Positions 9,881 to 64,000 of a stretch of DNA of 64,000 nucleotides are shown piece after piece. The notes beneath the pieces are model-generated. The model searched no databases. It was not told the DNA's origin and saw only the letters and a program-made list of their open reading frames with translations. The DNA is from Balanoglossus misakiensis (Eukaryota > Animalia > Hemichordata). How positions within the stretch are numbered: the first letter of the stretch is position 1; each line of letters begins with the position of its first letter. The position numbers and the translations under genes are program-made. The stretch covers positions 10,177,200 to 10,241,199 of the forward strand of contig CM082593.2 in assembly GCA_040954595.2 (NCBI GenBank), written 5' to 3'.

Positions 9881-10000
9881 CGCACCAATATAGAAACATT
9901 GTATATTGATCTGAACTCTCCTCCATATCCTTTGCCAAGTCAAGGTAGTATTAATTACAGTGGATTTACTGTAGAACAATTGGCTGCCATGTTGGGTGAG
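9881..10000 (+). pseudogene. MED25: MED25 VWA exon, copy 1 (nonsense + 1-bp deletion)
   Basis: API*KHCILI(frameshift)NSPPYPLPSQGSINYSGFTVEQLAAMLGE|gtaagt. The counterpart at 25206-25326 is open. Confidence 0.85.
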
Positions 10001-10159
10001 GTAAGTAAGCGATGTAAAACATTTCATACAACACTGCATACTAACAATAGTCATATCAACCTGACAAGGGAAGATGAAAAAAGCCTAAGCCCCTTTGAAC
10101 AGCTGTATTTTCTTGGAATCTGGTTTTATAATACACTTTGATTGATTCCCTTACGAAAA

Positions 10160-11117
10160 AGTTCTATAGAACTTCTATTGCTTTTCAATAAAAATTTCTA
10201 TTAAGAATCAATGGATATTCCATGGAAACTCAATGGAATTTCTATGGAAATTCTATTGACTTCTATGGACTTTTGGCCACTTTTCAATTAAACTTCTATA
10301 GAAGAGATATAGATTTCAATTGATTTTCTATAGAAGAGATATAGATTTCAATTGATATTCTATTGATTTTCTATAGAAGAGTTATCGATGTGTATTGATT
10401 TTCTATAGAAGAGATATAGATTTCAATTGATTTTCTATTGAACTTCTATAGAAGAGTTATAGATGTGTATTGATTTTCTATAGAAGAGATATAGATTTCA
10501 ATTGATATTCTATTGATTTTCTATAGAAGAGTTATCGATGTGTATTGATTTTCTATAGAAGAGATATAGATTTCAATTGATTTTCTATTGAACTTCTATA
10601 AAAGAGTTATAGATGTGTATTGATTTTCTATAGAAGAGATATAGATTTCAATTGATATTCTATTGATTTTCTATAGAAGAGTTATCGATGTGTATTGATT
10701 TTCTATAGAAGAGATCTAGATTTCAATTGATTTTCTATTGAACTTCTATAAAAGCGTTATAGATGTGTATTGATTTTCTATAGAAGAGATATAGATTTCA
10801 ATTGATATTCTATTGATTTTCTATAGAAGAGTTATCGATGTGTATTGATTTTCTATAGAAGAGATATAGATTTCAATTGATATTCTATTGATTTTCTATA
10901 GAAAAGTTATCGATGTGTATTGATTTTCTATCGAAGAGATCTAGATTTCCATTGATATGCTATTGATTTTCTATAGAAGAGATTTAGATTTCAATTGATT
11001 TTCTATTGAACTTCTATAAAAGAGTTATAGATGTGTATTGATTTTCTATAGAAGAGATATAGATTTCAATTGATTTTCTATTGAACTTCTATAGAAGAGT
11101 TATAGATGTGTATTGAT
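10160..11117. repeat. Left subterminal tandem array (~75-bp subunits, 150-bp period) rich in TTCTATAGAA, TCAATTGA and TCTATTGA
   Basis: GTTATCGATG recurs at 10381, 10531, 10681 and 10831. TTCTATAGAA and TCAATTGA palindromes are dense throughout. Confidence 0.9.
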
Positions 11118-11442
11118 CCTGTATTATCTGGTTACCAAAGACAGAGGGGTGGGATTGGGGCAAAAAGATTGATATTTATAAAAAAAAATACTTCACTGAA
11201 TACTCAGCATATTCTTTCAGTCTGTTGTTTAATATTAACACATAAATGTGCTAAATACAGTGTTGCCTCAGTCAAATTAGTTTTCTGCTGGCTTTCAGTG
11301 AAATATTTGAGAAAAAACCAACATACTCATCAAATTAAAACTTAACATTTTATTGCAATAAATCAATAAAAAAGGTGACATGAAAAATAGAGTTTAAATA
11401 AATAAAGATAAGCAAAACACATAAATGAAACAGTTAACCACA

Positions 11443-14400
11443 CTACTTGTGTTTTGCTTCGGAGTAAATTTTCATTTTAATGTACTGCTCCACCTCAGCA
11501 ACCTTGCAGTCAAACTTGCTGCATACAATATCTGTGGGGAAACAGAGAAAAATAATTGCTGAATGAAATTGTACTGAACCAAAGCTCAAACCTTAGAGAT
11601 GTCTTTGTTTGCCATACTATATTTTTTTTTCTAAAACCTAACCGCCAGAAACAAAGAACAAACTAAATGAAAATATATCAAGGTTACGGTAGAGAGAATG
11701 GTATATTTGATTTGCAGTCCCTTAAACGCTTTTACAACTTTTTAAAGATGGCCTATCTCATTCCACATACAGGTCTCCATTAGCAGACCAAAGCAGATTT
11801 TGCAAAAGCACTGCAAAATTTGCACCCTATCTACAGCAGGTTACACTATGTTAAAGAGGTATACATCACTGATCACTCCAAATATACAAAATGCCAATAT
11901 ATCTTTGTGTATTCCTATGACCTAAAATAGCAAATTAATAATTGGAGATGATAAGTAACTTAATACCTACATACCTTTAATGGCTCTTATTTTGTCGGCA
12001 TCCAGCGCTGGTTTGGGTAAAGAACCCTTGACTGAGTTGCACACTCTGCCACTATACGAATGAGTCCTGAGTGTTTCCCTATCAAACACCACTGCCATCA
12101 AATCATACGTCATTTTCTTCGCTGTTGATTCGTCAACGCGGCTCAGCTGCTTGGCAGTTACTATCATCTCATCATTGACCAAAATCTGAAAAAGACCAAA
12201 ATAATTGGTAACACTAGAGGCAGACACAAAATAAATATGATTTCTGTCATAGAAAACCTGATAAAATAGAAAGTACAGTAAAAACTCTATCACAGAGTTC
12301 TTACAATACTTTCTATTTTCTATGAAATCAACAGCTCTAACAATACAACCACATTTTCCATGGAAGTAAAGTTGCAGAGCCATGATCTGTTCTAAACAGA
12401 GTTGCAATCATCAGGTCTGCAGATAAATAAACAAAAACTTTATGACCAAAATAATTAAATTCTTTGTTTTGCATCCACTCAGATTTTGATAGGTAAGTGC
12501 ACAAGTTCAGAAACACAGAAATTTTTAACAGGTAAATTTAATATTTACTCGATAGTTTCCATGTAATACAAGCACCTTATCAAGAATCCCAGCAGAAACT
12601 AATTTTTCACCCTGTTAAGTTGCACTCAAATGTGACATTCTGCAAGCATGCAGGTGTTCCAATCACATTTCCCAAAGCATGTATACAAAAAATTTGCAGG
12701 CAGAAAAGTTTTTTTCATGAAATCTCCCAAAACATACACATGCAGAACAAAGAATTTTCTTACTTAGGCCATATGGTTGAACCTAAGAAGCAGAAGTATT
12801 ATTTGAATGACTATGACTATGTCTATGCAGATTCCTGAAATCACACATTCATGATAAATTGAAATAGATATCAACAGTTACCTCTTCACTGTTCAATGGG
12901 GCATCATGTGTTCCACTGGAGTTATTTGTCTTTGAGACTGCAGGTGCACCAGTCTTTACACCAAATGTTCTTTTTACATCAGCAATTTGTCCAAGCAGGC
13001 CAGGTAACTCTATACCATTTGAAAAGATTAGAAAATAGAGGTATAGGACATATGTTCATTGATTTAACTCCAATAGTTCATAGGAAAAGGAATAAAAAAG
13101 AGACAATCCTGGCAAAAAAATATTGTTAACCAATAAGACAGTGGACCATCATCCATAAACAAAATTATTTTAATTGTGGTGAACTGAGATGTTTACATAC
13201 TGACCAGCATTATCAAACTATTGTCAAGTAACTACAAAACACATAGTTTGAGAAAGCTGGTCACAAATGAAGGCTTTCATTGGTGCTGAAAAAGGTAAGT
13301 TACAGCTTGCCCAGCTTAGTCATCATGTACAAGTGAATAAATTAAATGTTTTTCATTTATAAATTAATTATGGTAACATTTTACTTTGTATTTCAAAACA
13401 TATATGGAGTCCTTGATACTTCAATTTCTCGTCAAAAAAATGCTGAAAATGATGTTCTTTTGTGATATTCATGAGTATTTTCAAAAACAATCATTCTGTG
13501 ACATATTTTGGCTGTTGACTTTTGATATTTCTAAAAATAAAACCAAAAGAACACTGACAAAATAATTTGATTCAGCTAAAACCTACTCATTGCATTAAAA
13601 ATATACAAGAACTAAAACAATCCACTGACTTTATTCAATGCGTGTATCAATATTCTTTTACCTTTTAACACTCGAAGAGAATAGCGTAGTGCAGCATTTT
13701 CCTCCTTCAATTCCCTTATTTCTTGGTGTAGCTTGTCCTCATCATAGCCTTCTGAGCCACTGGACACTGGTGTTGAAGCACGGAATGAACTCTAGAATGC
13801 AGAGGAACATTAATGAAATAGACTAAAAATCACAGTTGTCAACAATAACAACACAGTTCATACATGGATTTCAACATGCTTGTGATATTTACCCATCAAC
13901 AGCACTGAACTGCAGTCACTTTTTGATGGAAATATTATTAGTTTCAATAATTGCATAACTTTGCTCACATTTTAAAGATACATTTTGCAGGGGTTGCGTT
14001 AACCCCATATTTTGCTTCCCGAACTTTTCAGGGGGACTCTTACTTTTTACACAGAGGGGTCCCATCTCTCACATAAATACAAAAATTTTAATTTCCTGTC
14101 TTTAATTTCATGTGACAGGGACTCATTCTGAGCAAACACTAGTGCAATCCCTGTTTCATAATTAAGCCACACAAGCTCACAACACTCTCTTATACGTCAG
14201 CATTATTTTAGCTTTTGTGCAAGTTTGGAAGTAAAAGTATATGCTTCAGGGGCAGAAATTGTAGCGTATGACATTGCCAGTACTTACAGACTTAAGTGAC
14301 TGGACATCCTCCTCCATTTTTTTACGAACTTCAGATGTCTTCTTGCTTTCTAACTTTCTCAGCAAATTTAAAGACGAATTCTTTTGGCTGATCTTCTTTT

Positions 14401-15270
14401 TTTTTATTCAAGTTATTTTTTTCCTGAAAAAGAAATGAAATGATTATTGTGAGATACTTCTGAACACTTGGCATGGAGTTTTGAAAATGGGTGTTTATAT
14501 TGACAACGAGAAATTAATATCATCTGTACCTAGATAAATCATATTGAATTCTGCATCAGCCACATGGTAGTTAAATATCAACTTACCGGTACATAATCAT
14601 CTTCATCATCTTCGCTGTCGGTGTAGATTCTCTTTGGTGCCTTTTCACGTTTCCCCCGTCCATATTCTGGAGTCTTAATGTTTGTGTTCACCCCTTTTTT
14701 GACATAGACGTTGGCTAGTCGCAACAGCTCCTGCCTGTCATCTGTAAAGATAAACATTATGACCTGGTTGTGAAAAACACACACACACACAACTGAATGA
14801 GAAACTTTTGCTGACGATCAAAAATGCACAACACAAACCACGTAAAAAATTGTGTCACAAAGTAAAACAAAGGGGTTGCTGGCTTTCCTGGCAACTTGTT
14901 TTGTTATGCAAATAGTATAACAATGAACAGGAAGTAAACAAGCTGTGTTTGGTTCAAGGGAGCCCAAGACCCTGGGATCGAGATAAAGGTAACTTTCTAC
15001 AATGAACGTCTTCAACATTGGGAAATGTTTCTACCTGACACGTTTTTTTTGAGTTTTGAAAAAATCCAAACAATTCTTACCGCTAAACTTGATAACTCTT
15101 GCTACATATCTCGCCGGATCTCTTCCTGCCTTCTTTGATGGCCACTGGACAGCACAATCTTCGTCGAAGTCAAAACTCATAACGTCGTCTTCATCGAGAT
15201 CTTCTATCCAATTCGTCTCACCAACTTCAACACTCTTTTCTTCGTAAAAATCAAATAAAGCGTACTTCAT
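11443..15270 (-). CDS. Transposon-encoded BEN-domain protein (~345 aa; N-terminal domain, basic/acidic linker, coiled coil, C-terminal BEN), one +1 frameshift in exon 3
   Basis: Seven GT-AG exons: 15270-15081, 14741-14587, 14423-14288, 13791-13662, 13009-12882, 12185-11975, 11531-11443 (TAG). Phases match once one extra base in an A run of exon 3 is removed. Coiled coil KLHQEIRELKEENAALRYSL. BEN pattern MTYDLMAVVFDRETLRTHSYSG...KPALDADKIRAIKDIVCSKF...IKMKI. AATAAA on the - strand at 11349-11354. Confidence 0.82.
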
Positions 15271-15709
15271 GGTGACTAGATCGACGTTCGTAAATAGAGA
15301 AATCTTAAGCGGAGCTGGTAGCGAGTGACGCGTGGTGTGTCTTCGGTGGTTACTGAATCAGCTGTAAAAGGTCAGGAGTTCGCCGACTATTTATTTACCT
15401 TGATGCATGCTGGGTAAGAAATGCGGGCGTTTATGAGAAGAGTCAAAGGTCATGCAGTAGGTCATGTGATTTTAAAATACAGCATTTCTTAGAGCTGAGA
15501 TGTTATTTGAAAAAAAAACACGTTAAGATATCATTCACTTTATTTTGAAACGCCAAAATTCACCTTAAAGTAGTACCACAGATCGATCGGAACGTTAAAA
15601 TTTGTACTTGAGATGATGCCATATCTATCACCCAGCATGCACCGCAGTCACCGACGCTTGCACAGCTGATTCACTAGATCATCAGATCGCTGTTCGTCGC
15701 AGAAGAGAC
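15271..15709. promoter_or_regulatory. Bidirectional promoter with mirror-image Staf/ZNF143-like and E-box motifs
   Basis: 439 bp between the two ATGs. TGAATCAGCTGT (15354) pairs with ACAGCTGATTCA (15662); TGCATGCTGGGT (15404) pairs with ACCCAGCATGCA (15630). CACCCAGCATGCACCGCA fits the Staf consensus YWCCCRNMATSCMYYRCR as recalled. Confidence 0.6.
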
Positions 15710-18700
15710 ATGTCGAGGGTCGTGCGCGGTCCATACAAGTGTTACCTAAATGATACCGAAGTCAGTATTCCAAAGAGAACCTTGTTTAGATGGCGAATTC
15801 GCGATAAACATGGTTTAGAGGTAAGTGTAGCTCTTTTTTACCACGGCCTGAAGTATGCGCCGCGCTTGCTGCAGCTGCAGTTCCGTAGCCTGCAACATTC
15901 CTCGATGTGTGTGTGTTACGGAAAGGTGCCCCTTCCGTAACACACACATCGAGGAAAGTTGCTGGCTACGGAACTGCAGCAAGCGCCGGGCGAAAACTGG
16001 CATTGTCTGTCATTTCTCGGTGATTGTTATAATTATAGGGTGTCATAGGTAGTGTATGCATTTTATTTCTGTTCTTTTTGGTTTTATTAAAGTCCAAAAG
16101 GCTAGCTTGTACATCTCCAACTCTTTGTCTAAATATAGCAGCATTTATGCTGCTGCAGTATTTTTTTAATTGAAAAATAATTTAGTACTACGAATATTGA
16201 GGGAAAAAAACAAAAAAAAACAGGTCATTACTGACACCAGCCTACTTTTCTTTATAAGAACTATTAAAGCATTAGCACTTTCCTCTGAGATTTAGAATCA
16301 AATGATGTAATATGCATTATGTAGTCCCGCTATACTGAAATACATATCTTAACCACATTCTATTCATATCTTTCAGACTGATGATATCGCCATCGAAACT
16401 GACAGTTGTTCTGTAAATAGTGACTACCAATCTGAAAGTGGCAATGATGAATATTTATATGATGGTAACGCCTCTCATGACAGTTATCGAAGTGGACTAA
16501 CTTTCTCTCACAGAGATACAGACATTGATGAATACAGCACTACAGAACCAGACACAGATGACTATTTATCAGCCGACGAAACATCAGATGATCAGACATC
16601 ATTCATCATAGATGACCAAGTACCAGCTCAGGAAACGTCACATGTCAACTTACTGAGTGACGGAAGTGGAGAGATTGAAGAAAGTGAAGAAATTATACAC
16701 ACACGCATATCAAACAAAAACACTAATGGGACGGGCACAGGAGAAAGTGGTGATGAATTGGTAGGTTCTGCTTTTGACTTTAAAAATTTTATGGTTGCCA
16801 ATTTGAATTTTGTGCGGTAACTTACCTTAATCACTTATGATCTATGACTTTTTACATTATTTTGATGATTTACTTTCAAAGTAAGTGTACTTACTGAAGG
16901 GTGTGCATTTACAACTTGAAAAAGTGGACATGGTGCAATATACACATTGATTCCTTGACAGAAACATGACAGTGATACACACCAAAATGTCTCTATTCTT
17001 TTAGCAATGTGACCAACTTTTGATCATCGGAAATTTAAAAATTGTTTATTTGTTTAGCTATTACAACATCGTTTAGTATTCCACTAATCAATCTGTTTTA
17101 TATGTTAATGCAACTTAATACACATCGTTATTATAAAATACAAGTATGAAAGCTAGTGTCTCTATGGTTGTGAATGCATTTATTTTAATTCTCAAGGAGG
17201 CCTATTATTTAGAGCATGACCCCTGTTTTCAAAATCTGGTGATCAATGCATAAGAGATCAGAGCCTGTTTTCACAAGGTCAAATCAAGGTTAAATGTGTC
17301 AGTCCTGTGAGTGTGACCATTGCATTGTTCATGTTATTTCTGGTTGTCCTATTTTTCTAAATGTACTACTATTTTTCTAATTCTCAGGGAGCTGAAGAAG
17401 GAACTGGAGAGATGAATGTCACAACAGAACAGCTTTGTCTACTTCTCCAGGCTTTTGTCCTCAGACACCGACTTACGAAAGATGCTCTCAAAGACTTGTT
17501 GCACGTCATTAACCTGATAGCACCAGAAACTGTACCAGCAACACCATACTTTTTTAAGAACTGTTTTGCTGAGACAGCTGTGTCGTGTAAGAAGCACTTC
17601 TATTGCTGTAGTTGTATGGCATATCTTGGTGCCGAGGGCGAAATTCAAACTGACACCACTTGTGGTAGCTGTAATGAGCCTTTCAGTGAGCAAATATCTG
17701 TAGCAAATAACAATTTTTTCATTGTAATGCCAATCAAGGACCAACTTGTAGATTTATTAGAAAATCAGAATATTATTAGTGAATTGTCAGTTTCAACTTT
17801 ATTGGATGGCTCCATTTATCAAGATCTCCTTGAAAATGGTATCATAAGAGATAATGACTTAACCCTTCTCTGGAATTGTGATGGGGTCCCTGCCTTTAAG
17901 TCCTCTGGTTTCTCAATATGGCCCATTCAGTGTGTAGTGACAGAACTGACTCCAAAATGTCAAAAACAAAATATTCTCATGCCTGGCCTATGGTTTGGTC
18001 AATCCAAACCACAGATGGATTGTTTTTTGGCACCATTTGGTGAAGAATGTGTGAAATTGGGTAATGATGGTTTTACCTGGAGAAATCAAAGTTCTGGTGA
18101 GATAATCACAACATGTGTCCATGTGTTATTGTGTTCTTCTGATTCAGCTGCCAGGCCTTTGATGCGCAATTGCAAACAGTATAATTGGCAGTATGGATGT
18201 GACTGGTGCCTGCACCCAGGGGAATACATAGCAAAGGGCAATGGTCATGCACGTGTATATAGTGTACAGGATCTTCCTCATCCTGAGTTGAGGAATAACG
18301 ATCAGTATGAGGATTGTTGTAGGCAGGCGGTTGAAAGAGACCGACCAATATTGGGTGTGAAGGGACCCAGTGTGTGTATGTTGCTTCCCAATTTCGACAT
18401 TGTGAAAGGGTTTGTTCCTGATTATTTGCATTGTGTTTTATTAGGGGTTGTCAGGCAAATCACCTCACTTTGGCTTGACAGTGAAAACAAGCAGAAACCC
18501 TGGTACTTAGCCCCTGCTAAACAACGTGTAATTAATTCCCGTTTGGTGCAGCAGTTTCCTCCAAATGAAATAACCAGGACACCACGATCGTTAGATTACA
18601 GAAAGTATTGGAAAGGTTCGGAGTGGAGGGCATTTCTCCTTTTCTATTCTTTAATTGTTCTGAGAGGTGTGTTACCTGCAGTTTTTTCTGAACCATTGGT

Positions 18701-19604
18701 TTTTGCTGGTTTTTGGAATCCACACGTTACTTCAGGAAAAAGTAACAGCCCGCTCTGTTGATCTGGCAGAGCAGGCAATCAGAAAGTTTGTGACTCAAAC
18801 TGAATGCCTTTATGGGAAAGAAGTGATGTCATTTAATATGCACATTCTACTGCATTTGTCTAGTAGTGTTAGGGAATGGGCACCTCTCTGGGCTACATCT
18901 TCCTTTGTGTTTGAAAGTCACAATGGTGTAATCATGAAGCTATTTCAGGGTACTCAAAGTGTGCCTTCACAGATATCAAACACATTCTGTCTGTGGAGAG
19001 ATTTATCAAGAAGATCCACAATTATACCACAGGATAGTGATCTGAGGCCACTATTTGACAAATTGTCTAGAGGAATTGTGCATTTAAAGAGGGACTTTCA
19101 TAGCTGCTCAGGGGTTGTGGCCATGGGAGCTGCTGACAAACGGATATAAGATTGACAGACAGGTTAGCTGTAGAGGAGGCTGTGGGCCACCCTATCTTGA
19201 ATGTGAACGCCAAATATTACAAGAGATTCACTATATCAGGTGCTGTGTTCACAACAAGTAGCTACACTAGGGCAGCAAAGAGAACGAACCATTATTTTCA
19301 GGGACAAGATGAGCAATTGTATGTAATAAGAAACCTTGTAATTCTTAGGCTAGGTTGCATATGCCAAGGTGATTGTCACTGTAATGAAAGATCATTCCTG
19401 ATAGCCAGTAGGTGTTTAAGTGGGAGGTCAATGTTTGTTGACAATGAAATTGGCATACAGTGTACACATGTAAAACCACTGCGTGAGATTTCACATGAAA
19501 GAATTGCTGTGCGACCGTCGTTTTTGAGACGTAAATGTGTAGTTCTTGGAATGGGTGAGTCAATTTACCTCTCACCACTCCCCAACCCTTTTGAAAGGGA
19601 CTGA
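15710..19604 (+). CDS. EnSpm/CACTA (Tnp2, Transposase_21-like) DDE transposase, 3 exons, two frameshifts
   Basis: Exons 15710-15820 (RGPYKCYL...IPKRTLFRW), 16377-16760 (acidic) and 17388-19604, all joined in phase 0. Motifs CCSC..CGSC, WNCDGVPAFKSS..SIWP, DSAAR, YGCDWC, PDYLHCVLLGV, WKGSEW, FNMHILLHL, PLWATSSFVFESHNG, C-terminal PNPFERD. Frameshifts at ~18682 (T6 run) and ~19147. AATAAA at 19741. Confidence 0.92.
15862..15986. repeat. Near-perfect ~60-bp-arm inverted repeat in transposase intron 1
   Basis: GCGCTTGCTGCAG..TTCCGTAGCC..CCTCGATGTGTGTGTGTTACGGAA / TTCCGTAACACACACATCGAGG..GGCTACGGAACTGCAGCAAGCGC. Confidence 0.85.
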
Positions 19605-19930
19605 TAAGGGCTGCAAAAAAAGTCTGTAGGTAGCAAACACTTACCCCAGTACTGTAGTTGAGAGTCCGTTTCTTCTGATTTGTATTTATATACAGATTTG
19701 TATATGTACCAGTGTTTTGCAGATATCATTTTGAAATTGTAATAAATGAATTATTTACAGAGACATATTTGTCAAGTATTCATTCACAATATAAAATAGA
19801 ATGATTAAGAATGAATAGCTGTGTGTTTGAGCTGAATGTATACTGGTATCTGTTTGCTCGGGGTGAACTGGTTACTTTCCATGGCCAAACGATACAATCT
19901 TCGCCTAAATCAAAATCCTTAGCGTCCGGT

Positions 19931-21157
19931 CATGGTTGGCAATATTTTTCAATAGAAAATCTATTGACGGCAATAGAATTCAATAGAGACAGTGGATTTT
20001 TGTTAAAATACACTGTTCACATTGAAATGTATGTAGTTGGGGCAAACCTGACAAACTCTTTGTCATTTTGTGATGATTATGTGCACACATTTGCTAAAAA
20101 CTAGGGGAAAATGTTTCTTTCACCTATTTCATGGTTGGCAATATTTTTCAATAGAAAATCTATTGACAGCAATAAAATTCAATAGAGTCAGTGGATTTTT
20201 GTTAAAATACACTGTTCACAGTGAAATGTATGTAGTTGGGCCAAACCTGACAAATTCATTTGTCGTTTTGTGTTGATTATGTGCACACATTTGCTAAAAA
20301 CTAGGGGAAAATGTTTCTTTCACCTATTTCATAGTTGGCAATATTTTTCAATAGAAAATCTATTGACGGCAATAGAATTCAATAGAGACAGTGGATTTTT
20401 GTTAAAATACACTGTTCACAGTGAAATGTATGTAGTTGGGGCAAACCTGACAAATTCCTTTGTCATTTTGTGATGATTATGTGCACACATTTGCTAAAAA
20501 CTAGGGAAAAATATTTCTTTCAACCATTTCAAGGTTGACAATATTTTTCAATAGAAAATCTATTGACGGCAATAGAATTCAATAGAGTCAGTGGATTTTT
20601 GTTAAAATACACTGTTCACAGTGAAATATATGTAGTTGGGCCAAACCTGACAAATTCATTTGTCGTTTTGTGTTGATTATGTGCACACATTTGCTAAAAA
20701 CTAGGGGAAAATGTTTCTTTCACCTATTTCATGGTTGGCAATATTTTTCAATAGAAAATCTATTGACGGCAATAGAATTCAATAGAGACAGTGGATTTTT
20801 GTTAAAATACACTGTTCACAGTGAAATGTATGTAGTTGGGGCAAACCTGACAAATTCCTTTGTCGTTTTGTGTTGATTATGTGCACACATTTGCTAAAAA
20901 CTAGGGGAAAATGTTTCTTTCACCTATTTCATGGTTGGCAATATTTTTCAATAGAAAATCTATTGACATCAATAGAATTCAATAGAGTCTGTGGATTTCT
21001 GTTAAAATATACTTTGTTCACAGTGAAATATGTGTAATGGGGGCAAATCTTACAAATTGCTTTGTCATTGTATGATAATCATGTTAAAACCTATTAAAAA
21101 TAATTTTTCACTTATTTCATGCTAGGTAATATTTTCAATAGAAAATCTATTGACGGC
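19931..21157. repeat. Right subterminal array of ~200-bp tandem repeats (~6 units)
   Basis: CATGGTTGGCAATATTTTTCAATAGAAAATCTATTGAC, or a close variant, recurs at ~19931, 20130, 20330, 20530, 20730 and 20930, with a degenerate copy at ~21118. Confidence 0.92.
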
Positions 21158-21548
21158 TAGTTTAATGGAAATCATCTGTATAATTCTATAGAAAATAATA
21201 TTCTATTGATTTTCTATTGAATTCTACACGTTTCTATAGAGGTCTATAGAGTTCTATAGAACCTTTTTCGGAAGGGTTGAAATGTGTTTTACATCTAAAT
21301 GCATCGTTTTGGGAACATTTTCTAGTATGTATGTGATTATTAAATTGAACTTGTATATTTGCTGGGGCAACTAAATTTTCAGTAAAGATAAGGAATGCCC
21401 AATGTTCGGATTGTCTTCAAAAAGATGACAACAACTCAAGTCTCAAAAACTCTTTTGTTTTTAAGTTTGAATTGTAGTTGTCACATCATTAACGACTTCA
21501 CATGTGAATGCCAAATTTCGATTCTTAGCAAATGTTGTATTTTCACAG

Positions 21549-21702
21549 AGAGGAGTCCATTTCTCAATCATATCACCCCGCAAACTGCCTGAACTCCAAA
21601 AACTTAACTTCAAAGCATATGGTGAAGTACAGATGGTACCAATGAAGGATTATGCGGCTGATCCACACCACATGATACTTCTCAAAGGTTATCAACTTGC
21701 AG
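21549..21702 (+). pseudogene. MED25: MED25 VWA exon, copy 1 (open)
   Basis: cacag|RGVHFSIISPRKLPELQKLNFKAYGEVQMVPMKDYAADPHHMILLKGYQLA|gtaggt. Confidence 0.88.
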
Positions 21703-22245
21703 GTAGGTATCTGTTGCTACGCAAATATTTGCAATCATACCATGATCTAGATTCTAAAGTTCACTGGTCAAATATATAACTTGTTTACGTGGTCATTTAC
21801 AACCAATTCATCATTTTGTGGTTTGTTAAGATTTTCAGTACTCTAAATTGGTACTTCAATAAAATGGTTGTAATATATTTATTAATATTTATTACACATC
21901 ACGTATTATTATGCGCTCCTGGTTGGCTAATACTAAATATGACAGAAATTCATGACCTGTGCACACGATCTGAGGCTTATGGAAGTTATTGTCGTGAGTG
22001 ATGCAGTGTATTCTGTTGCAGTACTTTCACAAGCCAGCCTATTATTCCCCATCATTTCATTGCATGGCCAATTAATTACACATCCTCCTGAAAATTGTTG
22101 GAAGGTGGGCAATCAATTTCCATGGTTACATCCTGGATGAAACACTGGTACAGGTTCAAGACAAGTTTAGTGACATTGTGTGAATCCACAGCAGAATTTC
22201 ACATAAACTGTATAATCCTCCATTTTTGTAATGATTGTGTTTCAG

Positions 22246-23907: not shown

Positions 23908-26900
23908 ACCACACACAACTTCCACCCTGCTTGTAGCCACGAGAGTGAAAAAACCTCACCAATATGAACAATCGGTCTCTATCATTTATTCATTTTGGGC
24001 GAGTTCTTATGCTCATATCATTCAAGCGGGATGGAAATTGTGTATGGTTGAACATTCATTCACTACATATACATATGTACATTAATATAAAATGTCTCTT
24101 GTATCAAACATAATGGAAAAAAGGGCAGCAAGAGAGAGACTTTGTCCCTTTAATAGAAATGTGCATGTAATATTTTATTCAAACCATCACTTCTGTCTTG
24201 AACAATCTTTCCTTAATAGAGTGGTGTACTGATTAGAGAGATGTCTTATTGACAGGTTTCACTGTATTACCAACATTTTCAGTTCCATAATCCTTCAGTG
24301 TTTGCCAGAGAATTTGACAGCAGTCAAAAACTTTCTCTGCCATACTCACAATAAGAGAAAGCTTGCACCTGTGTTTTACTGTTAAATTACCATACCACAA
24401 AAAAACAGGTTGTTTTTGCGAGCAATAAATTTTTCGCAAAATATGCGAGAATCAACAAACGTGAAAATAAAAAGTCGCGTAAAATGTTTTTCGGAGATAA
24501 AGATGCAATGAAATACGAGAATGTGAAAATTAATCCTCGCGTAACAGTTTGGTCTTTTAATGTCGCGAAAAATTTCCTTTCATGAAAATAATCTGTTTTA
24601 CAGTCCGGTAATATTGAAGGTCAGAATGCTTTTGATGAGAGAACAATACACCAGTTGCAAAGTATCTTGACAAACATGAAATGATTGAATTCTCCGAAGA
24701 AGATATAATCTCGCAGTTGGTGTGTTGTTTCCTCATCAAAAGCATTCTGACCTTCAATATTATTCTGTTGAGCTATACATGCAATCTAGTCTATATATGT
24801 TCAGAGGTGATTATATCATCCATAATAGATCCTAAATACTAAAAGAGCATAAAATGACTGCGACAGATACTTTGTAAGTTGTAACAGGTGGGAAATAAGA
24901 ATTTGGATAACACAGTATTTTGGCTATTGTTGGGGAGCATGAATAAGTGATTTTGGAACCCCATGTAACACCTGTCTTACCATTAATATGACTGCATTGA
25001 TGGTACCATGAGGAATGCTAGTAAAATGACTGGGGAACCCTGGTTACATTACCCTGATCATCACTATGGTTCAGTCCAAAAGCATTGTTTTCTATGTTAA
25101 GGTTGGACCTCTGAAGAGGAAATTGGGGTGGAAGGGTAAGAAAAAACACTGACTGACAATACTGCCAATAACGAAATATTGTTTTTCTCTTCTCTTTGCA
25201 TACAGCACACAAGAACAGAAACCTTGTATATTGATCTGCAACTCTCCTCCACATCCCTTGCCAAGTCAAGATAGTATTAATTACAGTGGATTTACTGCAG
25301 ATCAATTGACTGCCATGTTGGGTAAGGTAAGCGATGTAAAACATTTCATACAACACTGCCTACTAACAATAGTCATATCAATCTGACAAGGGAAGATGAA
25401 AACAAAACATCTTTTCAAACTAGCTTACTGTGCGGACCAATTTCATTAAGCCCCATTTAACAGGAATTCTGGTTTTATAATTAACTTTGATTGATTGACA
25501 TGTGTTTTACATCTAAATGCATCGCTTTGGGAACATTTTCTAGTATGTATGAGATTATTAAATTGAACTTGTATATTTGCTGAGGGCAACTAAATTTTCA
25601 GTAAAGATGAGGAATGCTCAATGTTTTGATTGTCTTCAAAATGATGACAACAACTCAAGTCTCAAAAACTCTTTGTTTTGAATTTTGAATTGTTTTTGTT
25701 GCATCAGTAACGACTTCACATGTGGATGCCATATTTGATTCTTAGCAAATGTTGTATTTTGACAGAGAGGAGTCCATTCCTCAATCATATCACCCCGCAA
25801 ACGGCCTGAACTCCAAAAACTTAGCGACAAAGCGTGAAATACAGATGGTACCTATGAAGGATTATGCGGCTGATCCACACCACATGATACTTCTCAAAGG
25901 TTATCAACTTGCTGGTAGGTATATGTTGCTATGCAAATATTTGCAATCATACCATCCAGATTCTAAAGTTCACAGGTCAAATATATAACTTGTTTACGTG
26001 GCCATTTACAACCAATTCATCATTTTGTGGTTTGTTAAGATTTTCATTACTCTAAATTGGTACTTCCATAAAATGGTTGTAATATTTATTACACATCACG
26101 TATTGTTATGCGCTCCTGGTTGGCTAATACTAAATATGACAGAACTTCATGACCTCTGCACACGATCTGAGGCTTATGGAAGTTATTGTCGCGAGTGATG
26201 CAGTGTATTCTGTTGCAGTACTTTCACAAGCCAGCCTATTATTTCCCATCATGTCAATGCCTGGCCAATTAATTACACATCCTCCTGAAAATTGTTGGTA
26301 GGTGGGCAATCAATTTCCTTGGTTACATCCTGGATGAAACACTGGTACAGGTTCAAGGCAAGTTTAGTGACATTGTGTGATTCCACATCAGAATTTCACA
26401 TCAACTGTATAATCCTCCAATTTTGTGTTTCAGAAAAATCGGTGTCCAGTGGTGATACAAAAGAGGTTGCCATAGACAAACCTACAACCATAGCAACCAC
26501 TTCAGTGTCTACAACCACTACCACAACACAGCCACTGAAACCCGCATCAACAGTTACCATGTTTACAGCATCTACCTCCAGTATGACCTCAAATCCTCTC
26601 AAATCAAATGTTAGTCTCGGTTACCCAGATGCCTTTGCTTCTTCCGATGCTCTCCAGAAAAGGGTCTGGGGAAATGCTATTGAAAGCTTTGTAAAACAAA
26701 ATGGCCGATGTCAGGATTTTTATCATCGCCTGATTGGCTGAGCTGTCAGTATGACCCGGGTCACTGGCTCTCAACAATGTGTGATTTTTTGTCGTCTCTT
26801 CATATCAAGAGACCGGTACTTGTTGGTTGATGCGAAAGGCAAAAGGCGTCCTCTGTTAGCATTGTTGGAAAAATTATACGAAATATCTTTGGTAGACGAT

Positions 26901-51900: not shown

Positions 51901-53960
51901 TTTTTCATTAAAAATTATTTTCTTTCAAACTGATTGTCAGATTGCCTTGAGCTTTGGTAGGCATGTTCCCTGAAGCGATTGACGTAAGATATTGTACAAT
52001 TTTGGTGAAAATACTGATTTTTCTGAAACTGCATATGGGATTGCTTTGAAATTTGATAGGATTATTGCAATGGGTAACCCAAGTTTTGTCTGATTGTGTT
52101 GATTTCCCTATACTGAGACTCGCCAAGTACACTATATGTTTATATTACTAGAGAGTTCAGAATCCAATATGGCCGCCATACGAACTGGGACATACTGTGT
52201 AATCAGATTATTTTCTAAACTTGTCATATTTTAATTTCTCGATCTCACAAATAAAAATGAAATGCCAAAAACTGAGTAACTTTCGTTTCTTCCCGCTTGG
52301 TGTCCATTAAAGTCTTTTTCCTCCCACTGGGAAAGTGGCTAGAGTCAATATGTGCATAATGGCAGCATTATATGGCACTGAATAAATGGCAGGGGTGTTT
52401 ACATCTCCTAATTTGTTTTCACTTAAACCATTATAAATATCTAACAGTATATGATCATATTGTGTATGCAACTCGGAGATGTGTTTCACTTCAGGGTTGG
52501 AAGTTTGTTTAGTCAAGTCTGGGAAGTGACATGTCTTCAAAGTGACTGATGTTATCTGCTTAGAGCTGAATGCCCATTGGTGTTCTTTCCTAGGAATACA
52601 TTTTCTTTGCATTTCATAGACCTGTGTATAATTATAATTTCAGTTATATATTCTAATTTGCGTTTAGGTAGAGTATGCATGGAATTAAAATAATTATTCT
52701 GTAATTACCCAACAAAAATGTTTGTCTTACAATTGTCTAGCAAGTGGATATTTTGATTGTTAATTTGCACAGGCAACATTATGGAAGTAGCATAAAGAGT
52801 ATTCAATAATATAGCAGACCTTCTAGCCAGAAAGAAGAGCTTAGAAGATTTATCAGCTCATAATATTCCTTTAACCAATGAACTTTATATGAACTTGCAC
52901 ACCTGCCTTCAAGATACAGGGATTAATGTTCAGGAAACCTTACCAGCTCTAGTACATTTATTTCAGCCAGAAATTGAATTACCAGATAAAAAAATCAGTA
53001 ATTTTACAAAGATACAGTCAGAAAATAAATGGAGAAAGCCAGCAAGGAAGGCATAAAAGTGGAATACATGAAAGACACAGTTAGCTTAAACTACATGTGT
53101 ATGCAGTAAAAACTGTATGGTGCAAGGACGTTCATTTTTATGATTTATAGCCAGCCAGTCTTTCCATGCATATCATACCAAAATTAATATGAAAATTGTG
53201 TAAATGTTAATAGACTACAAGGAAAGTACAAATACATGTAGAAATTACACTATCCAACTTTCTCCACTTTTGATATCTGCTCAACACAGGCAAGCAAAAG
53301 GGCCGATCTGAGAGTTTGACTTGAATGATGGCAATTTTTGCTGTCCAGAAGTAACTGTATAAAATATTTTTTGGTAGTAGTATTATTGCTCAAAATACAC
53401 AAGAATTTAAATATCTCCGCTCGCTACAGTGATTGAACTGATTTTCAGCAAATTGCAGTGTATAAATAAACATTGCCATCTAATGAAATATCAATCCAAT
53501 ATGGCCGCCCATTTGCAATGGTAAAATGCTAGGTTTTTCCTTTTTTGAGCGCCTGGGAATTTAAATTATAATCCAGATATCAAACACTTAAGTCACTATC
53601 TGTATCTGCACATATATTGTAATATATTCTGAAAATTTCGTTACAATTAGATCAACTATGATTGAGACACGGAACATCAAACATTGCAAAATTTCATATT
53701 TCCCATGGTGCCATGCAAAAAATAGAGAGATTTTCTTTACAAGTTTAGATGATCTCCTGTAAAACTGAAAGAAGTATTCTTCTGTGAATCGTGCATAATT
53801 TTTTGAAAAATGTTGAAGGTACTTGAGAATATCAGTATTTTTTGATGCTTTTGTACCTTGAAAACTGGTGAACCGATTTTGATAATTTTCTTTATTATAA
53901 CCTACAAAGACCTATAAACATTTTTTATCAGTAAAATAAACAGCCTTATATAATTTTACT

Positions 53961-54649
53961 GGTCCAGCTGTTACAGAGACCACTGGCTATTTTATTATAA
54001 ACTGGTGGTAGGTCAGTGAATGCCTCTGTCTGATTGGACTAATTAGCTTGTCATACTCGCATGTATTTTTAAAGACAGTTTTTGGACAACAATCAGCTGT
54101 GGTCCAGCTGTTACAGAGACCTCCGGCTATTTATTATAAACTGGTGGTAGGTCAGTAAATGCCTCTGTCTGATTGGACTAATTAGCTTGTCATACTCGCA
54201 TGTATTTTACAGACAGTTTTTGGACAAAAATCAGTTGTGGTCCAGCTGTTACAGAGACCACCGGCTATTTTATTATAAACTGGTGGTAGGTCAGTGAATG
54301 CCTCTGTCTGATAGGACTAATTAGCTTGTCATACTCGCATGTATTTTACAGACAATTTTTGGACAAAAATCAGTTGTGGTCCAGCTGTTACAGAGACCAC
54401 CGACTATTTTATTATAAACTGGTGGTAGGTCAGTGAATGCCCTTGTCTGATAGGACTAATTAGCTTGTCATACTCGCATGAATTTTACAGACAGTTTTTG
54501 GACAAAAATCAGCTGTGGTCCAGCTGTTACAGAGACCACCGGTTATTTTATTATAAACTGGTGGTAGGTCAGTGAATGCCTCTGTCTGATTGGACTAATT
54601 AGCTTGTCATACTCGCATGTATTTTACAGACAGTTTTTGGACAAAAATC
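53961..54649. repeat. ~139-bp minisatellite, 5 copies
   Basis: GGTCCAGCTGTTACAGAGACC at 53961, 54101, 54239, 54378 and 54517. Confidence 0.95.
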
Positions 54650-54867
54650 TGTTTTTTTAGTGCTGCTTGTAGGATTGCAGTGACACATAACACTTGATTG
54701 GGCATAGTGAATTTTTTTATGTTTCCATAGTATTTGAATATTTTTGCCATATATGCTTGCCAATGTCGCCCGTGATTTTAATTCTGGCGAATACCTAAAA
54801 TCTGTGTAATCCCCAAATGGCACAACAGTATCCTATATGCTATGTTTTAAGAAGTTAATTATACATA

Positions 54868-56599
54868 GATATGCATCTTGTTAAAATGCACAACAGTCAC
54901 GATTTTGTTCACACGAGTTTGATTGCTGCCAGGACATAACCCAAATATTTTGATAATTTTGGCAATGACCTTTGAACTACTATCCCATGCCTTGGCATGT
55001 ACAGCAGATACAGCCTTCAAATTTGGAGGACTGGAACACCTAATGAAGTACATGTATTAACTTTAACACAATAATTATGTACATAAGCTCTTTAAAGTTA
55101 CCCAATAGATCTTAGAAGTCTGGTTTTTGCTGGACACTGATTAGTTTGATATCAAAATTTGTTGGCCCAACTTTGCGTGAACTCTGGCTTACTTACCATT
55201 TCTCAGCACCCATAACAAATACAGCCTTTGCTTTCTGTTGGAACCATGCTAACCACTTTGGCTCCTCCAATGCTGCTTATAGTTGGGTCTTCTTCATGGC
55301 AGCCATATTTGATTTTTGGATAACCTTTAAAAGTTGACATTTTTTTCAAAAATTACAAGGCCAATCAAGTTCTAATTTACAGTCCGTTCCAATTTTTTTC
55401 AATAATATTGTTAGTGGTCATGCGAATTTGGATTCATTATGGATTTTTGAAAAATCTCATGAAAAATTTCCAAAGTCTTTTTTTAATCAAGCTTTCAAGT
55501 GAATTGTGATTGCTTTAACCTCATTCGAGCCAAATTGTATTTTCTGAACACCGATGAAAAACAAAGATTTCCTATTTCTAGCCTACTCATTGATAGCACA
55601 CAAATTAATTTTATTGATACGAGTCACCATATGACTAGAATACGTTACATTTTTGGCAACTTTCACATGTTCTTTGATCCAGTTGTTTTTCAGAATTTGA
55701 TTAAACAATTTATTGGCCACTCTCACATGTCCTTTGATCCAGTAATTCTAGAACTTAATTTTATGTGGATATGCCTCTTGTTAAAAAGCACAACAGTCAT
55801 GATTTTGTTCACATGAGAACTATTGCTGCCAGGACATAACCCAACTATTTTTATAATTCTGGCAATGATCTACTTTCCCATAACTTGCCATGCACAGCAG
55901 ATACAGCTTTCAAATTTAGGGGACTGGAACATCTAATGAAGTATTAATCTTTAACACAATACTTATGTACGTATCCTATTTAAAGTTAACCAATAGAGCT
56001 TAGAACTTTGGTTCTTGTTGAACACTGATCAGTTTGATATCAGATTTTGTTGGCACAATTTTGCGTGACCTCTGGCTTACTTACCATTTCTAGCCATCCA
56101 AAAAAGATACAGAGCTTGCTTTCTGTTGGAACCATGTTAACTGCTTTGGCACCTGTAATGCTGCATGTTCCTTTAATTGTCTTCTTCATGGTGGCTATAT
56201 TGAATTTTCTGATAACCTCTAAAAGTTGACATTTTTTTCAAAACTACAGGGCCAATCAAGTTCTAATTTACTGTCCCTTCCAATTTTTTTCAATAATATT
56301 GTTAGTGGTCATGCGAATTTGGATTCATTATGGATTTTTGAAAAATGTCATGAAAAATTTCCAAAGTCTTTTTTTAATCAAGCTTTCAAGTGTATTGTGA
56401 TTGCTTTAACCTTATTCGAGCCAAATTGGATTTTCTGAACTCTGATTAAAAACGAAGATTTCCTATTTCTAGCCTACTCATTGAAAGCACGCAAATTCAT
56501 TTTATTGATATGAGTCACCATATGAATAGAATACTTTACATTTTTTGGCAAATTTCACATGTCCTTTGATTCAGATTTGTTAGAACTGAATTGTACTTG
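54868..56599. repeat. Two tandem copies of an ~830-900-bp unit (satellite progenitor)
   Basis: Units start at 54868, 55768 and 56600 with GATATG.CTCTTGTTAAAA.GCACAACAGTC. The internal sequence is collinear (e.g. 55330-55680 versus 56220-56570). Confidence 0.9.
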
Positions 56600-59500
56600 G
56601 ATATGTCTCTTGTTAAAAAGCACAACAGTCATGATTGTGTTCACTTGAGTTTTGTCGCTGCCAGGACATAACCGAAATATTTTGATAATTTTGGCAATGA
56701 CCCTTGATCTACTTGGATATGTCTCATGTTAAAAAGCACAACAGTCTTGATTTTGTTCACACGAGTTTTATCGCTGCCAGGACATAACCAAAATATTTTG
56801 ATAATTTTGGCAATGACCCTTGATCTACTTGGATATGTCTCTTGTTAAAAAGCACAACAGTCTTGATTTTGTTCACATGAGTTTTATCGCTGCCAGGACA
56901 TAACAAAAATATTTTGATAATTTTGGCAATGACTCTTGATCTACTTGGATATGTCTCTTGTTAAAAAGCACAACAGTCTTGATTTTGTTCACATGAGTTT
57001 TATCACTGCCAGGACATAACCCAAATATATTGATAATTTTGGCAATGACCCTTGATCTACTTGGATATGTCTCTTGTTAAAATACACAACAGTCTTGATT
57101 TTGTTCACATGAGTTTTATCGCTGCCAGGACATAACCCAAATATTTTGATAATTTTGGCAATGACCCTTGATCTACTTGGATATGTCTCTTGTTAAAAAG
57201 CACAACAGTCATGATTGTGTTCACACGAGTTTTATTGCTGCCAGGACATAACCCAAATATTTTGTTAAGTTTGGCAATGACCCTTGATCTTCTTGGATAT
57301 GTCTCTTGTTAAAAAGCACAACTGTCATGATTTTGTTCACATGAGTTTTATTGCTGCCAGGACATAACCCAAATATTTTGATAATTTTGGCAATGACCCT
57401 TGATCTACTTGGATATGTCTCTTGTTAAAAAGCACAACAGTCAGGATTTTGTTCACATGAGTTTTATCACTGCCAGGACATAACCCAAATATATTGATAA
57501 TTTTGGCAATGACCCTTGATCTACTTGGATATGTCTCTTGTTAAAATACACAACATTCTTGATTTTGTTCACATGAGTTTTATCGCTGCCAGGACATAAC
57601 CCAAATATTTTGATAATTTTGGCAATGACCCTTGATCTACTTGGATATGTCTCTTGTTAAAAAGCACAACAGTCATGATTGTGTTAACACGAGTTTTATT
57701 GCTGCCAGGACATAACCCAAATATTTTGATAATTTTGGCAATGACCCTTGATCTTCTTGGATATGTCTCTTGTTAAAAAGCACAACAGTCATGATTTTGT
57801 TCACATGAGTTTTATTGCTGCCAGGACATAACCCAAATATTTTGATAATTTTGGCAATGACCCTTGATCGACTTGGATATGTCTCTTGTTAAAAAGCACA
57901 ACAGTCATGATTTTGTTTACGTGACTACTATTGCTGCCAGGACTTAACCCAAATATTTTGATAATTTTGGCAATGACCCTTGATCTACTTAGATATGTCT
58001 CTTGATAAAAAGCACAACAGTCATGATTGTGTTCACACGAGTTTTATTGCTGCCAGGACATAACCCAAATATTTTTATAATTTTGGCCATGACCCTTGAT
58101 CTACTTGGATATGTCTCTTGATAATAAGCACAACAGTCATGATTGTGTTCACATGAGTTTTATTGCTGCCAGGACATAACCCAAATATTTTGATAATTTT
58201 GGTAATGACCCTTGATCTTCTTGGATATGTCTCTTGTTAAAAAGCACAACAGTCATGATTGTGTTCACACGAGTTTTATTGCTGCCAGGACATAACCCAA
58301 ATATTTTGATAATTTTGGCAATGACCCTTGATCTACTTGGATATGTCTCTTGTTAAAAAGCACAACAGTCAGGATTTTGTTCACATGAGTTTTATCACTG
58401 CCAGGACATAACCCAAATATATTGATAATTTTGGCAATGACCCTTGATCTACTTGGATATGTCTCTTGTTAAAAAGCACAACAGTCAGGATTTTGTTCAC
58501 ATGAGTACTATTGCTGGCAGGACATAACCAAACTATTTTGATAATTTTGGCAATAACTCTTCATCTACTTGGATATGTCTCTTGTTAAAATGCACAACAT
58601 ACATGATTTTGTTCACATGAATTCTATTGCTGTCAGGACATAACCCGAATATTTTGATAATTATGGCAATGACCCTTGAACTACTTGGATATGTCTCTTG
58701 ATAAACAGCCCAACAGTCATGATTGTGTTCACACGAGTTTTATTGCTGCCAGGACATAACCCAAATATTTTTATAATTTTGGCCATGACCCTTGATCTAC
58801 TTGGATATGTCTCTTGTTAAAAAGCACAACAGTCATGATTTTGTTTACGTGACTACTATTGCTGCCAGGACTTAACCCAAATATTTTGATAATTTTGGCA
58901 ATGACCCTTGATCTACTTGGATATGTCTCTTGATAAAAAGCACAACAGTCATGATTGTGTTCACATGAGTTTTATTGCTGCCAGGACATAACCCAAATAT
59001 TTTGATAATTTTGGTAATGACCCTTGATCTTCTTGGATATGTCTCTTGTTAAAAAGCACAACAGTCATGATTGTGTTCACACGAGTTTTATTGCTGCCAG
59101 GACATAACCCAAATATTTCGATAATTTTGGCAATGACCCTTGATCTACTTGGATATGTCTCTTGTTAAAAAGCACAACAGTCAGGATTTTGTTCACATGA
59201 GTTTTATCACTGCCAGGACATAACCCAAATATATTGATAATTTTGGCAATGACCCTTGATCTGCTTGGATATGTCTCTTGTTAAAAAGCACAACAGTCAG
59301 GATTTTGTTCACATGAGTACTATTGCTGGCAGGACATAACCAAACTATTTTGATAATTTTGGCAATAACTCTTCATCTACTTGGATATGTCTCTTGTTAA
59401 AATGCACAACATACATGATTTTGTTCACATGAATTCTATTGCTGTCAGGACATAACCCGAATATTTTGATAATTATGGCAATGACCCTTGAACTACTTGG

Positions 59501-62500: not shown

Positions 62501-64000
62501 CCCTTGATCTACTTGGATATGTCTCTTGTTAAAAAGCACAACAGTCATGATTGTGTTCACACGAGTTTTATTGCTGCCAGGACATAACCCAAATATTTTG
62601 TTAAGTTTGGTAATGACCCTTGATCTTCTTGGATATGTCTCTTGTTAAAAAGCACAACTGTCATGATTTTGTTCACATGAGTTTTATTGCTGCCAGGACA
62701 TAACCCAAATATTTTGATAATTTTGGCAATGACCCTTGATCTACTTGGATATGTCTCTTGTTAAAAAGCACAACAGTCAGGATTTTGTTCACATGAGTTT
62801 TATCACTGCCAGGACATAACCCAAATATATTGATAATTTTGGCAATGACCCTTGATCTACTTGGATATGTCTCTTGTTAAAATACACAACAGTCTTGATT
62901 TTGTTCACATGAGTTTTATCGCTGCCAGGACATAACCCAAATATTTTGATAATTTTGGCAATGACCCTTGATCTACTTGGATATGTCTCTTGTTAAAAAG
63001 CACAACAGTCATGATTGTGTTAACACGAGTTTTATTGCTGCCAGGACATAACCCAAATATTTTGATAATTTTGGCAATGACCCTTGATCTTCTTGGATAT
63101 GTCTCTTGTTAAAAAGCACAACAGTCATGATTTTGTTCACATGAGTTTTATTGCTGCCAGGACATAACCCAAATATTTTGATAATTTTGGCAATGACCCT
63201 TGATCGACTTGGATATGTCTCTTGTTAAAAAGCACAACAGTCATGATTTTGTTTACGTGACTACTATTGCTGCCAGGACTTAACCCAAATATTTTGATAA
63301 TTTTGGCAATGACCCTTGATCTACTTAGATATGTCTCTTGATAAAAAGCACAACAGTCATGATTGTGTTCACACGAGTTTTATTGCTGCCAGGACATAAC
63401 CCAAATATTTTTATAATTTTGGCCATGACCCTTGATCTACTTGGATATGTCTCTTGATAATAAGCACAACAGTCATGATTGTGTTCACATGAGTTTTATT
63501 GCTGCCAGGACATAACCCAAATATTTTGATAATTTTGGTAATGACCCTTGATCTTCTTGGATATGTCTCTTGTTAAAAAGCACAACAGTCATGATTGTGT
63601 TCACACGAGTTTTATTGCTGCCAGGACATAACCCAAATATTTTGATAATTTTGGCAATGACCCTTGATCTACTTGGATATGTCTCTTGATAAAAAGCACA
63701 ACAGTCATGATTGTGTTCACATGAGTTTTATTGCTGCCAGGACATAACCCAAATATTTTGATAATTTTGGTAATGACCCTTGATCTTCTTGGATATGTCT
63801 CTTGTTAAAAAGCACAACAGTCATGATTGTGTTCACACGAGTTTTATTGCTGCCAGGACATAACCCAAATATTTCGATAATTTTGGCAATGACCCTTGAT
63901 CTACTTGGATATGTCTCTTGTTAAAAAGCACAACAGTCAGGATTTTGTTCACATGAGTTTTATCACTGCCAGGACATAACCCAAATATATTGATAATTTT
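56594..64000. repeat. 116-bp satellite DNA (>60 monomers, runs off the window end) with higher-order structure
   Basis: ACTTGGATATGTCTC at 56711, 56827, 56943 and onward (period 116). Diagnostic variants recur at 5336-bp spacing. Confidence 0.97.

Follow-up and report, generated by a model that had tools for sequence, protein, structure and literature searches.

A two-gene CACTA/EnSpm element in an acorn worm: a broken copy with a transposase and a head-to-head BEN-domain partner gene

A 64,000-nucleotide stretch of the Balanoglossus misakiensis genome (contig CM082593.2, positions 10,177,200–10,241,199 of the forward strand; termed here the window) contains at positions 10148–21276 a CACTA/EnSpm transposon that has two genes, a transposase and, head-to-head with it, a gene that ends in a BEN domain. 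This raises the question of whether the second gene was merely picked up by this copy or is a regular part of animal CACTA elements, and, if it is, what it might do there. Sequence comparisons indicate that the head-to-head pairing is old, conserved and widespread in animal CACTA elements, and the partner gene is under purifying selection.

The element itself is real, a copy of an animal CACTA/EnSpm (CMC) transposon. It is 11,129 bp in length, starts with CCCTT and ends with its reverse complement. The terminal inverted repeats at 10148–10172 (plus strand; CCC start, first palindrome 16 bp in) and 21251–21276 (minus strand; GGG end) have 24 matches over 25/26 nt, and the dinucleotide TT is found on both sides, at 10146–10147 and 21277–21278. 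An empty paralogous site in the window has a single TT (25495–25496). The joint 10145→21277 is also found in contigs of sequence runs X1 and X2, but these may come from flank paralogues and need not represent an empty allele. The ends that a first-pass annotation, made from the sequence alone, had assigned by inverted repeats and target-site duplication are thus borne out. CCC ends and a 2-bp target duplication are described as hallmarks of the animal CACTA elements termed TRC (PMC1636069). Both the CCC...GGG inverted repeats and the 2-bp duplication expected of animal CACTA/EnSpm elements (TRC; CMC/CMCT) are present here, and GGG ends are found in relatives as well. The end pattern does not recur in the 64-kb window beyond the element's own two ends.

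The transposase is encoded on the plus strand by three exons, which match full-length fish relatives at the N-terminal motif and at the final residues. Exon 1 (15710–15820) has a conserved YK.YL...IP..T..R motif, exon 2 (16377–16760) is an acidic linker with similar linkers in full-length relatives, and exon 3 (17388–19604) encodes the Transposase_21 region with two conserved D residues, C(2)C, H(3)H and a predicted E, and is interrupted by two frame breaks. The earlier assignment to the Tnp2 type is supported by Pfam Transposase_21, with a score right at the cut-off (E 9.6e-7, 28.6 bits). It is a Transposase_21-type DDE transposase of the kind found in animal CACTA/EnSpm elements; 178 relatives were found, the best at 48% identity, and their named sources include oysters, fish, corals, ticks and ants. 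The two D residues are invariant across 35 aligned sequences. The CMC group is marked by a C(2)C and an H(3-4)H motif, which lie after the second D and before the E (PMC12730594), and both are found in this interval, as CDWC at 18198 and HILLH at 18841. FESHNG follows at 18910, the predicted catalytic E being placed by position; HILLH and FESHNG lie past the first frame break.

The window copy is non-autonomous, as its transposase reading frame is not open. The breaks are near 18685 (18682–18687) and within 19089–19146, where the alignments of relatives switch frame. The first stop is at codon 623 of 903, upstream of H(3)H and of the predicted catalytic E, and movement of this copy would need transposase supplied from elsewhere. 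The main X1 contig across 14844–19178 has no gaps relative to the window and identical transposase breaks, and no indel at either break was found in any X1 or X2 contig; therefore the common transposase form of the sample is also broken. Contigs drop rare variants, and an intact master copy may therefore be present in the sample. Small introns were considered as an explanation of the breaks and rejected, as relatives align gap-free across the first one.

The partner gene consists of seven exons on the minus strand, and all six introns are GT..AG. Exon 1 (15081–15270) encodes a predicted Tudor-like beta barrel; exon 2 (14587–14741) a conserved GRG[KH]R motif and an acidic patch; exon 3 (14288–14423) has a frame break at an A9 run (14397–14405). 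A predicted coiled coil is encoded by exon 4 (13662–13791), and its end and a linker by exon 5 (12882–13009), with an LPGLL motif common to the related protein P0127 and the related locus L006. Exon 6 (11975–12185) encodes the core of the BEN domain recognized by Pfam, and exon 7 (11443–11531), with a homologous exon in L006, the last BEN helices and the stop. The start codons of the two genes are 439 bp apart (15271–15709), and this gap is likely a shared two-way promoter.

The first-pass annotation had described a divergent seven-exon gene of about 345 amino acids ending in a BEN domain. The exons, the introns and the BEN domain stand, but the window frame stops at codon 146, in the A9 run, and 345 residues is a read-through length with X at the break. 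That both genes are broken in the window copy had been overlooked, as had the Tudor-like domain. At the A9 run the contig of X1 lacks one base, which gives the open form, and X3 agrees with the window; no contig with the shorter form is listed in X2. An 845-nt X3 contig skips intron 2 and, past exon 3, continues with the end of exon 4, and this single contig provides sequence support for two of the six introns. Run X3 has no record as RNA, so the spliced contig is either a processed copy or a transcript. A different acceptor for exon 3 was considered and dropped, as the X3 contig uses the modelled one. Two of the breaks (among 14397–14405, 18682–18687 and 19089–19146) fall in homopolymer runs. 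In the common form of the sample, the transposase is seemingly broken, and the partner is open in the contig of one run and broken in the spliced contig.

The best full-length relative of the partner is P0151 of Ptychodera flava (RefSeq 'BEND6-like'), with 30% identity over residues 2–343. A word-index search with exon 6 alone gave no match, and no relatives were found in viral_contigs.

Modelling suggests a partner protein made up of a Tudor-like domain, a coiled coil and a BEN domain. The BEN fold, which the first-pass annotation had proposed to look for in the spliced protein, is found: exon 6 matches Pfam BEN (E 6e-7, 30 bits; cut-off 23.2), and the closest solved BEN sequences are BEND6 (E 1.5e-4) and Insensitive (E 1.1e-3), with Bsg25A also among them. 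In the structural model of P0151, a beta domain and a long helix are accompanied by a BEN domain, which superposes on Insensitive 4ix7 (E 3.9e-8, root-mean-square deviation (rmsd) 1.6). The protein has a single C-terminal BEN domain, as BEN-solo factors do, and the same applies to P0151. A coiled coil before the BEN domain is also typical of BEN-solo factors. Here it is predicted only, from an exon 4 heptad pattern in which 8 of 11 a/d positions are hydrophobic and from a helix at 189–221 in the coiled-coil region of the homologue's model; a Pfam match to CCDC92 is below cut-off.

Exon 1 has no Pfam match and no match by sequence to a solved structure. Modelled alone, it is predicted to form a four-strand barrel (pLDDT, the predicted local distance difference test, 82.6), and a comparison with 48,161 chains places the Tudor domains of ARID4B, KDM4C and ARID4A as the top three (Z 8.0, 7.1 and 6.7; next 4.4). 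The model superposes on the ARID4B Tudor domain with rmsd 1.1 over 50 residues at 14% identity. Foldseek also places KDM4 Tudor domains first, with an E of only 0.16. The barrel fold of the hybrid Tudor domains of ARID4 and KDM4 is thus present in the model, and it is repeated in the homologue's model. The domain is single, 63 residues long, with a net charge of −8. Prediction of a complex between it and the transposase core, run without alignments, gave a score of 0.00. A fold search of viral models returned bracovirus BEN proteins (E 1e-4 to 1e-3) with very poor superposition, a lead only.

Is the gene pair found in relatives? A scan of metagenome contigs was limited to the best 80 of 340 stretches with related transposases, which form 57 clusters; the partner profile was iterated on its own matches, and Pfam BEN served as a check. 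Among related transposases of 31–48% identity, eight of the nine clusters that have at least 6.5 kb upstream carry head-to-head partner exons. Six of the nine have the BEN exon, and two have first exons only, on contigs that end about 3 kb past exon 1. An additional BEN exon is found at locus L009, 1.4 kb upstream of the transposase. Every counted partner match is upstream of the transposase and on the opposite strand, and at L006 both genes are situated between the inverted ends. Pfam BEN passes five of the seven BEN exons of relatives; one scores 22.9 against the cut-off of 23.2, and one has no match. Ten clusters with 3.5–4.6 kb upstream gave no match at first, and two of these, L024 and L046, then showed a variant first exon; four of the ten contigs start within about 700 bp of transposase exon 1. 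The search for such pairs proposed in the first-pass annotation has therefore shown that relatives keep the gene, and in the same place.

The details of the arrangement are also kept. The start-to-start gap is 320–554 bp in eight related clusters and larger in two, and the G|GT donor position is identical in all 17 exons checked (after exon 1 and the BEN exon). Most partners retain the Tudor-like domain, and most major branches of the transposase tree, from which L006 was dropped for short coverage, contain partners. The nonsynonymous proportion of differences (pN) is below the synonymous proportion (pS) in 49 of 49 pairs, which were picked by protein similarity and mostly have saturated synonymous sites. 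At a pS of 0.94, L006 and L009 still share 70% of their BEN residues. The similarity of the N-domain tracks that of the transposase (rho 0.57, p 0.0002, 11 loci). The first-pass annotation had named a neutrally evolving, recently captured host fragment as the finding that would count against it. No such pattern is seen, and the BEN fold, the kept position and the purifying selection together argue that the partner is not a fragment of this kind.

Some relatives show features of their own. L046, L050 and L024 make up a sub-lineage with ATATAT-type end arrays in which the Tudor-like exon is split by an extra intron. L077 (515–3118) and L073 are a divergent pair; the L077 transposase is intronless and 867 amino acids long, and L077 has 310-bp end repeats without a palindrome, and no partner was seen there. 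At L062, a second, inverted partner exon 1 (14187–14417) is present downstream of the transposase, within a long inverted duplication.

If the partner binds DNA, the ends of the element are the obvious place to look for its sites. The palindrome TTCTATAGAA and its variants are found at both ends, with a spacing of 10–11 bp near the tips. The left subterminal array (10162–11117) starts as an 11-bp ladder and continues as tandem units of 75 bp (32+32+11), in which TTCTATAGAA and CAATTG abound. On the right are 5.7 copies of a 200-bp unit (19930–21066), each with TCAATAGA/TCTATTGA motifs, followed by a ladder of motifs 10–11 bp apart (21136–21261). The motif CAATWG, described as the core of Insensitive and ELBA sites, is counted 35 times at the left end, 27 at the right, 7 inside the element and 71 in the remaining 53 kb; the interior, including the promoter, has six degenerate matches to the array motif in 8.8 kb. 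The survey of relatives covered 37 loci, picked by hand and without removal of duplicates, in which the sequence continues for 1 kb or more beyond the transposase; 21 of these have CYATRG clusters above every shuffle maximum. Spacing was scored at 17 loci selected because they have clusters: of 110 distinct spacings, 86 are in helical phase against 40% expected, with phase windows that were fixed after the histogram was seen. Tandem copies inflate the motif counts. In eight of nine loci, picked from 20 examined, the outer motif stops 16 bp short of the terminus.

We lean, with restrained confidence, towards a role of the partner as transposition cofactor: at the ends it would bind the palindrome arrays as a BEN dimer and help to build the transposition complex. 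Both genes would be read from the one short two-way promoter. The coiled coil would dimerise the protein, and two BEN domains could then read one CYATRG-type palindrome, as Insensitive dimers do; the Insensitive homodimer binds a palindrome, with sites TCYAATHRGAA and TCCAATTGGA (PMC4281564), and NACC proteins are described as binding a CATG core. Sites 10–11 bp apart would load the dimers on one helix face from 16 bp in, the tip being left to the transposase, and the coated ends might then be paired and handed over to the transposase. Contact with chromatin, or with another protein, would fall to the Tudor-like domain. Pairing of ends for the transposase is the job of TnpA in maize (PMC1636069), and the partner would do it by an unrelated fold. 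It is plausible to view it as an analogue of TnpA. TnpA-like proteins have tandem helix-turn-helix domains and seem to be confined to flowering plants (bioRxiv 2026.08.24.746577), and the partner is therefore no homologue of TnpA; the likeness is one of analogy only.

A number of observations do not sit well with this picture. On the side of the pairing, the long locus L073, with at least 6.5 kb upstream, shows no partner, and none was assigned at L003, L020, L031 and L071. The similarity of BEN exons, as opposed to that of the N-domain, does not significantly follow the transposase (rho 0.16, p 0.18, 8 loci), and the sole spliced contig, from X3, carries the broken form of the partner. On the side of the binding sites, the element has no exact Insensitive sites (0 matches to TCYAATHRGAA or CCAATTGG), 8 of the 37 surveyed loci have ATATAT-type arrays and 8 neither type, and the manner in which the phase was scored has to be kept in mind. 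The transposase itself is a serious alternative reader of the arrays, as animal Spm transposases usually carry a helix-turn-helix domain of their own, typically fused to them (bioRxiv 2026.08.24.746577). The window transposase has a conserved N-terminal motif, and a transposase site could just as well account for the fixed 16-bp distance between the end and the first palindrome. Perhaps, then, it is the N-terminus of the transposase that recognizes the arrays, and the BEN protein acts separately as a regulator, for anti-silencing, insulation or promoter damping, that is dispensable for cutting. Repression and insulation are the known activities of BEN-solo factors (PMC4281564), plant TnpA counters silencing in a sequence-specific manner (bioRxiv 2026.08.24.746577), and the Tudor-like domain resembles chromatin factors. 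However, a palindromic motif suits a symmetric coiled-coil BEN dimer, the TnpA motifs reported being non-palindromic, and the arrays occupy the two ends, a long way from the promoter, where almost no such motifs are present. A regulator of this type is therefore possible but rather unlikely in our judgement.

Less probable still is a targeting role for the partner, in which insertion would be guided by the Tudor-like domain through recognition of a host protein or a histone mark while BEN keeps hold of the element's ends. The best fold matches are indeed with KDM4 and ARID4 Tudor domains, and the domain is kept in most partners; but the match covers only half of an interdigitated double Tudor, ARID4 Tudor domains are described as binding DNA (PMC8038949), and a single insertion site is known here. 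The BEN gene might also be a passenger, a host fragment captured as in Pack-CACTA elements and of no use to the element, as the broken window copy and the naming of database relatives as host 'BEND6-like' genes might suggest. Position, orientation, intron phases and promoter gap are the same across transposases only 31–48% identical, and the protein is kept while synonymous sites are saturated. A passenger is thus highly improbable, and pair position, intron positions and selection largely refute it.

Animal TRC elements (SmTRC1 and those of Tribolium and Aedes; PMC1636069) resemble the present element in CCC termini, 2-bp duplication, Transposase_21 and tandem repeats near the end. They differ in that the available portion of that paper describes no second divergent gene, whereas the present element is 11 kb long and has a Tudor-like/coiled-coil/BEN partner. 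The En/Spm elements of maize and Arabidopsis, with TnpD and TnpA (PMC1636069; bioRxiv 2026.08.24.746577), are alike in transposase superfamily, accessory DNA-binding protein and terminal arrays. Plant TnpA, however, is described as a protein with tri-helical helix-turn-helix domains in tandem, derived from the transposase and often produced by alternative splicing (bioRxiv 2026.08.24.746577). Such a tandem is not seen in the present partner, which has predicted BEN and Tudor-like folds instead and is the product of a separate head-to-head gene. As to termini, the present element has CCC ends and a 2-bp duplication. Plant En/Spm elements have CACTA ends and a 3-bp duplication. Their TnpA binds the terminal motif arrays, is required for transposition and brings about demethylation of the termini.

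In PIF/Harbinger elements, a Myb/SANT partner has a role in transposition. These elements also have a transposase and a separate DNA-binding protein (PMC12730594; Nuwa), and their partners are described as repeatedly domesticated, but superfamily and DNA-binding fold are different. The BEN-solo factors Insensitive, Bsg25A/Elba1, Elba2 and human BEND6 (PMC4281564, PMC10206803, PMC8887127) share a single C-terminal BEN domain of the same subtype; they are host genes outside transposons, while the partner adds a Tudor-like domain and its putative site has no exact Insensitive match. The hybrid Tudor domains of ARID4A/B and KDM4 (PMC8038949) have a like beta-barrel fold, followed, as here, by a disordered stretch with an RGR-like motif; they differ from the single 63-residue domain of the partner, at 14% identity and with its net charge of −8. 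Full-text searches found no literature on a CACTA-BEN pairing, with Repbase and Dfam outside their reach, where an earlier note is possible. The main text of one recent study does not contain the words BEN or Tudor and lists 'various accessory proteins', among which its supplement may include BEN (bioRxiv 2026.08.24.746577). Seen here is a widespread two-gene variant of animal CACTA elements, consisting of transposase and BEN partner, of which the window copy is broken.

Of interest also is the relation to host BEN genes. Relatives of the partner bear RefSeq names of host genes, and several are present in identical or near-identical copies, as expected of transposon genes. Transposon genes may therefore stand behind such acorn worm, insect and fish labels as 'BEND6-like' and 'early boundary activity protein-like'. 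A BEN tree of 51 rows and 82 columns, which is weak, places the pike/carp proteins P0148 and P0160 together with three BEN exons from elements (99/95) and joins L006 and L009 to pipefish 'BEND6-like' proteins (92/88); 82 columns are too few for direction, and BEND5, BEND6 and Insv are outside the tree. P0148, P0160 and P0144, pike/carp BEN proteins, have short branches beside the element-borne exons and are candidates for domesticated genes, as leads and not as proof. The pipefish models P0125–P0127, also 'BEND6-like', have the transposase exon-1 motif fused to partner exons, without the Tudor-like exon, and are possibly a chimeric gene. The earlier suggestion that such elements could seed host BEN genes thus stands as a lead only.

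Taken furthest, animal CACTA elements would have solved the TnpA problem anew with a Tudor-coiled-coil-BEN protein that reads phased palindromes, and would also be a reservoir from which host BEN-solo factors (Insensitive/ELBA, BEND5/6-like, perhaps bracovirus BEN) were repeatedly domesticated, many 'BEND6-like' entries being transposon genes. This combined proposal is tentative, and we think it doubtful as a whole. A partner with the proposed role would provide a defined cofactor for animal CACTA elements and would name a site that a large orphan class of BEN proteins binds in nature. BEN would also be one more DNA-binding domain that animals may owe to transposons; it is absent from the Codebook list of such domains, in the part of the paper available (PMC11601247). 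Which protein reads the ends could be tested by swaps between the subfamilies, whose arrays are of the CTATAG, CCATGG and ATATAT types.

The surroundings of the element add some detail. Its flanks are part of a local duplication in the window, with a paralogue at about 24118–26612 that is 88–91% alike. Frame pieces similar to the MED25 VWA domain bracket the element at 9914–10000 and 21471–21776 (Pfam E 5e-5 and 7e-15), and therefore the insertion is likely in an intron of a MED25-VWA-like gene.

Between the window and the main X1/X2 contigs only four base differences are listed within the genes (12727, 13501, 16397 and 17776). These few differences, and contigs that end at the right end of the element, make it likely that the family is very young and multi-copy. 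The depth of the X1 contigs is about 660–850 and was not read as copy number; runs X4 and X5, with short low-depth pieces only, were excluded. Transposase intron 1 has a 41-bp inverted repeat (95%) at 15874–15980, and as X1 contigs diverge from the element at 15947–15982, part of this repeat occurs elsewhere in the genome. Farther along the window are two tandem arrays, one of a 139-bp unit (5 copies) at 53960–54653 and one of a 116-bp unit (64 copies) at 56594–64000.

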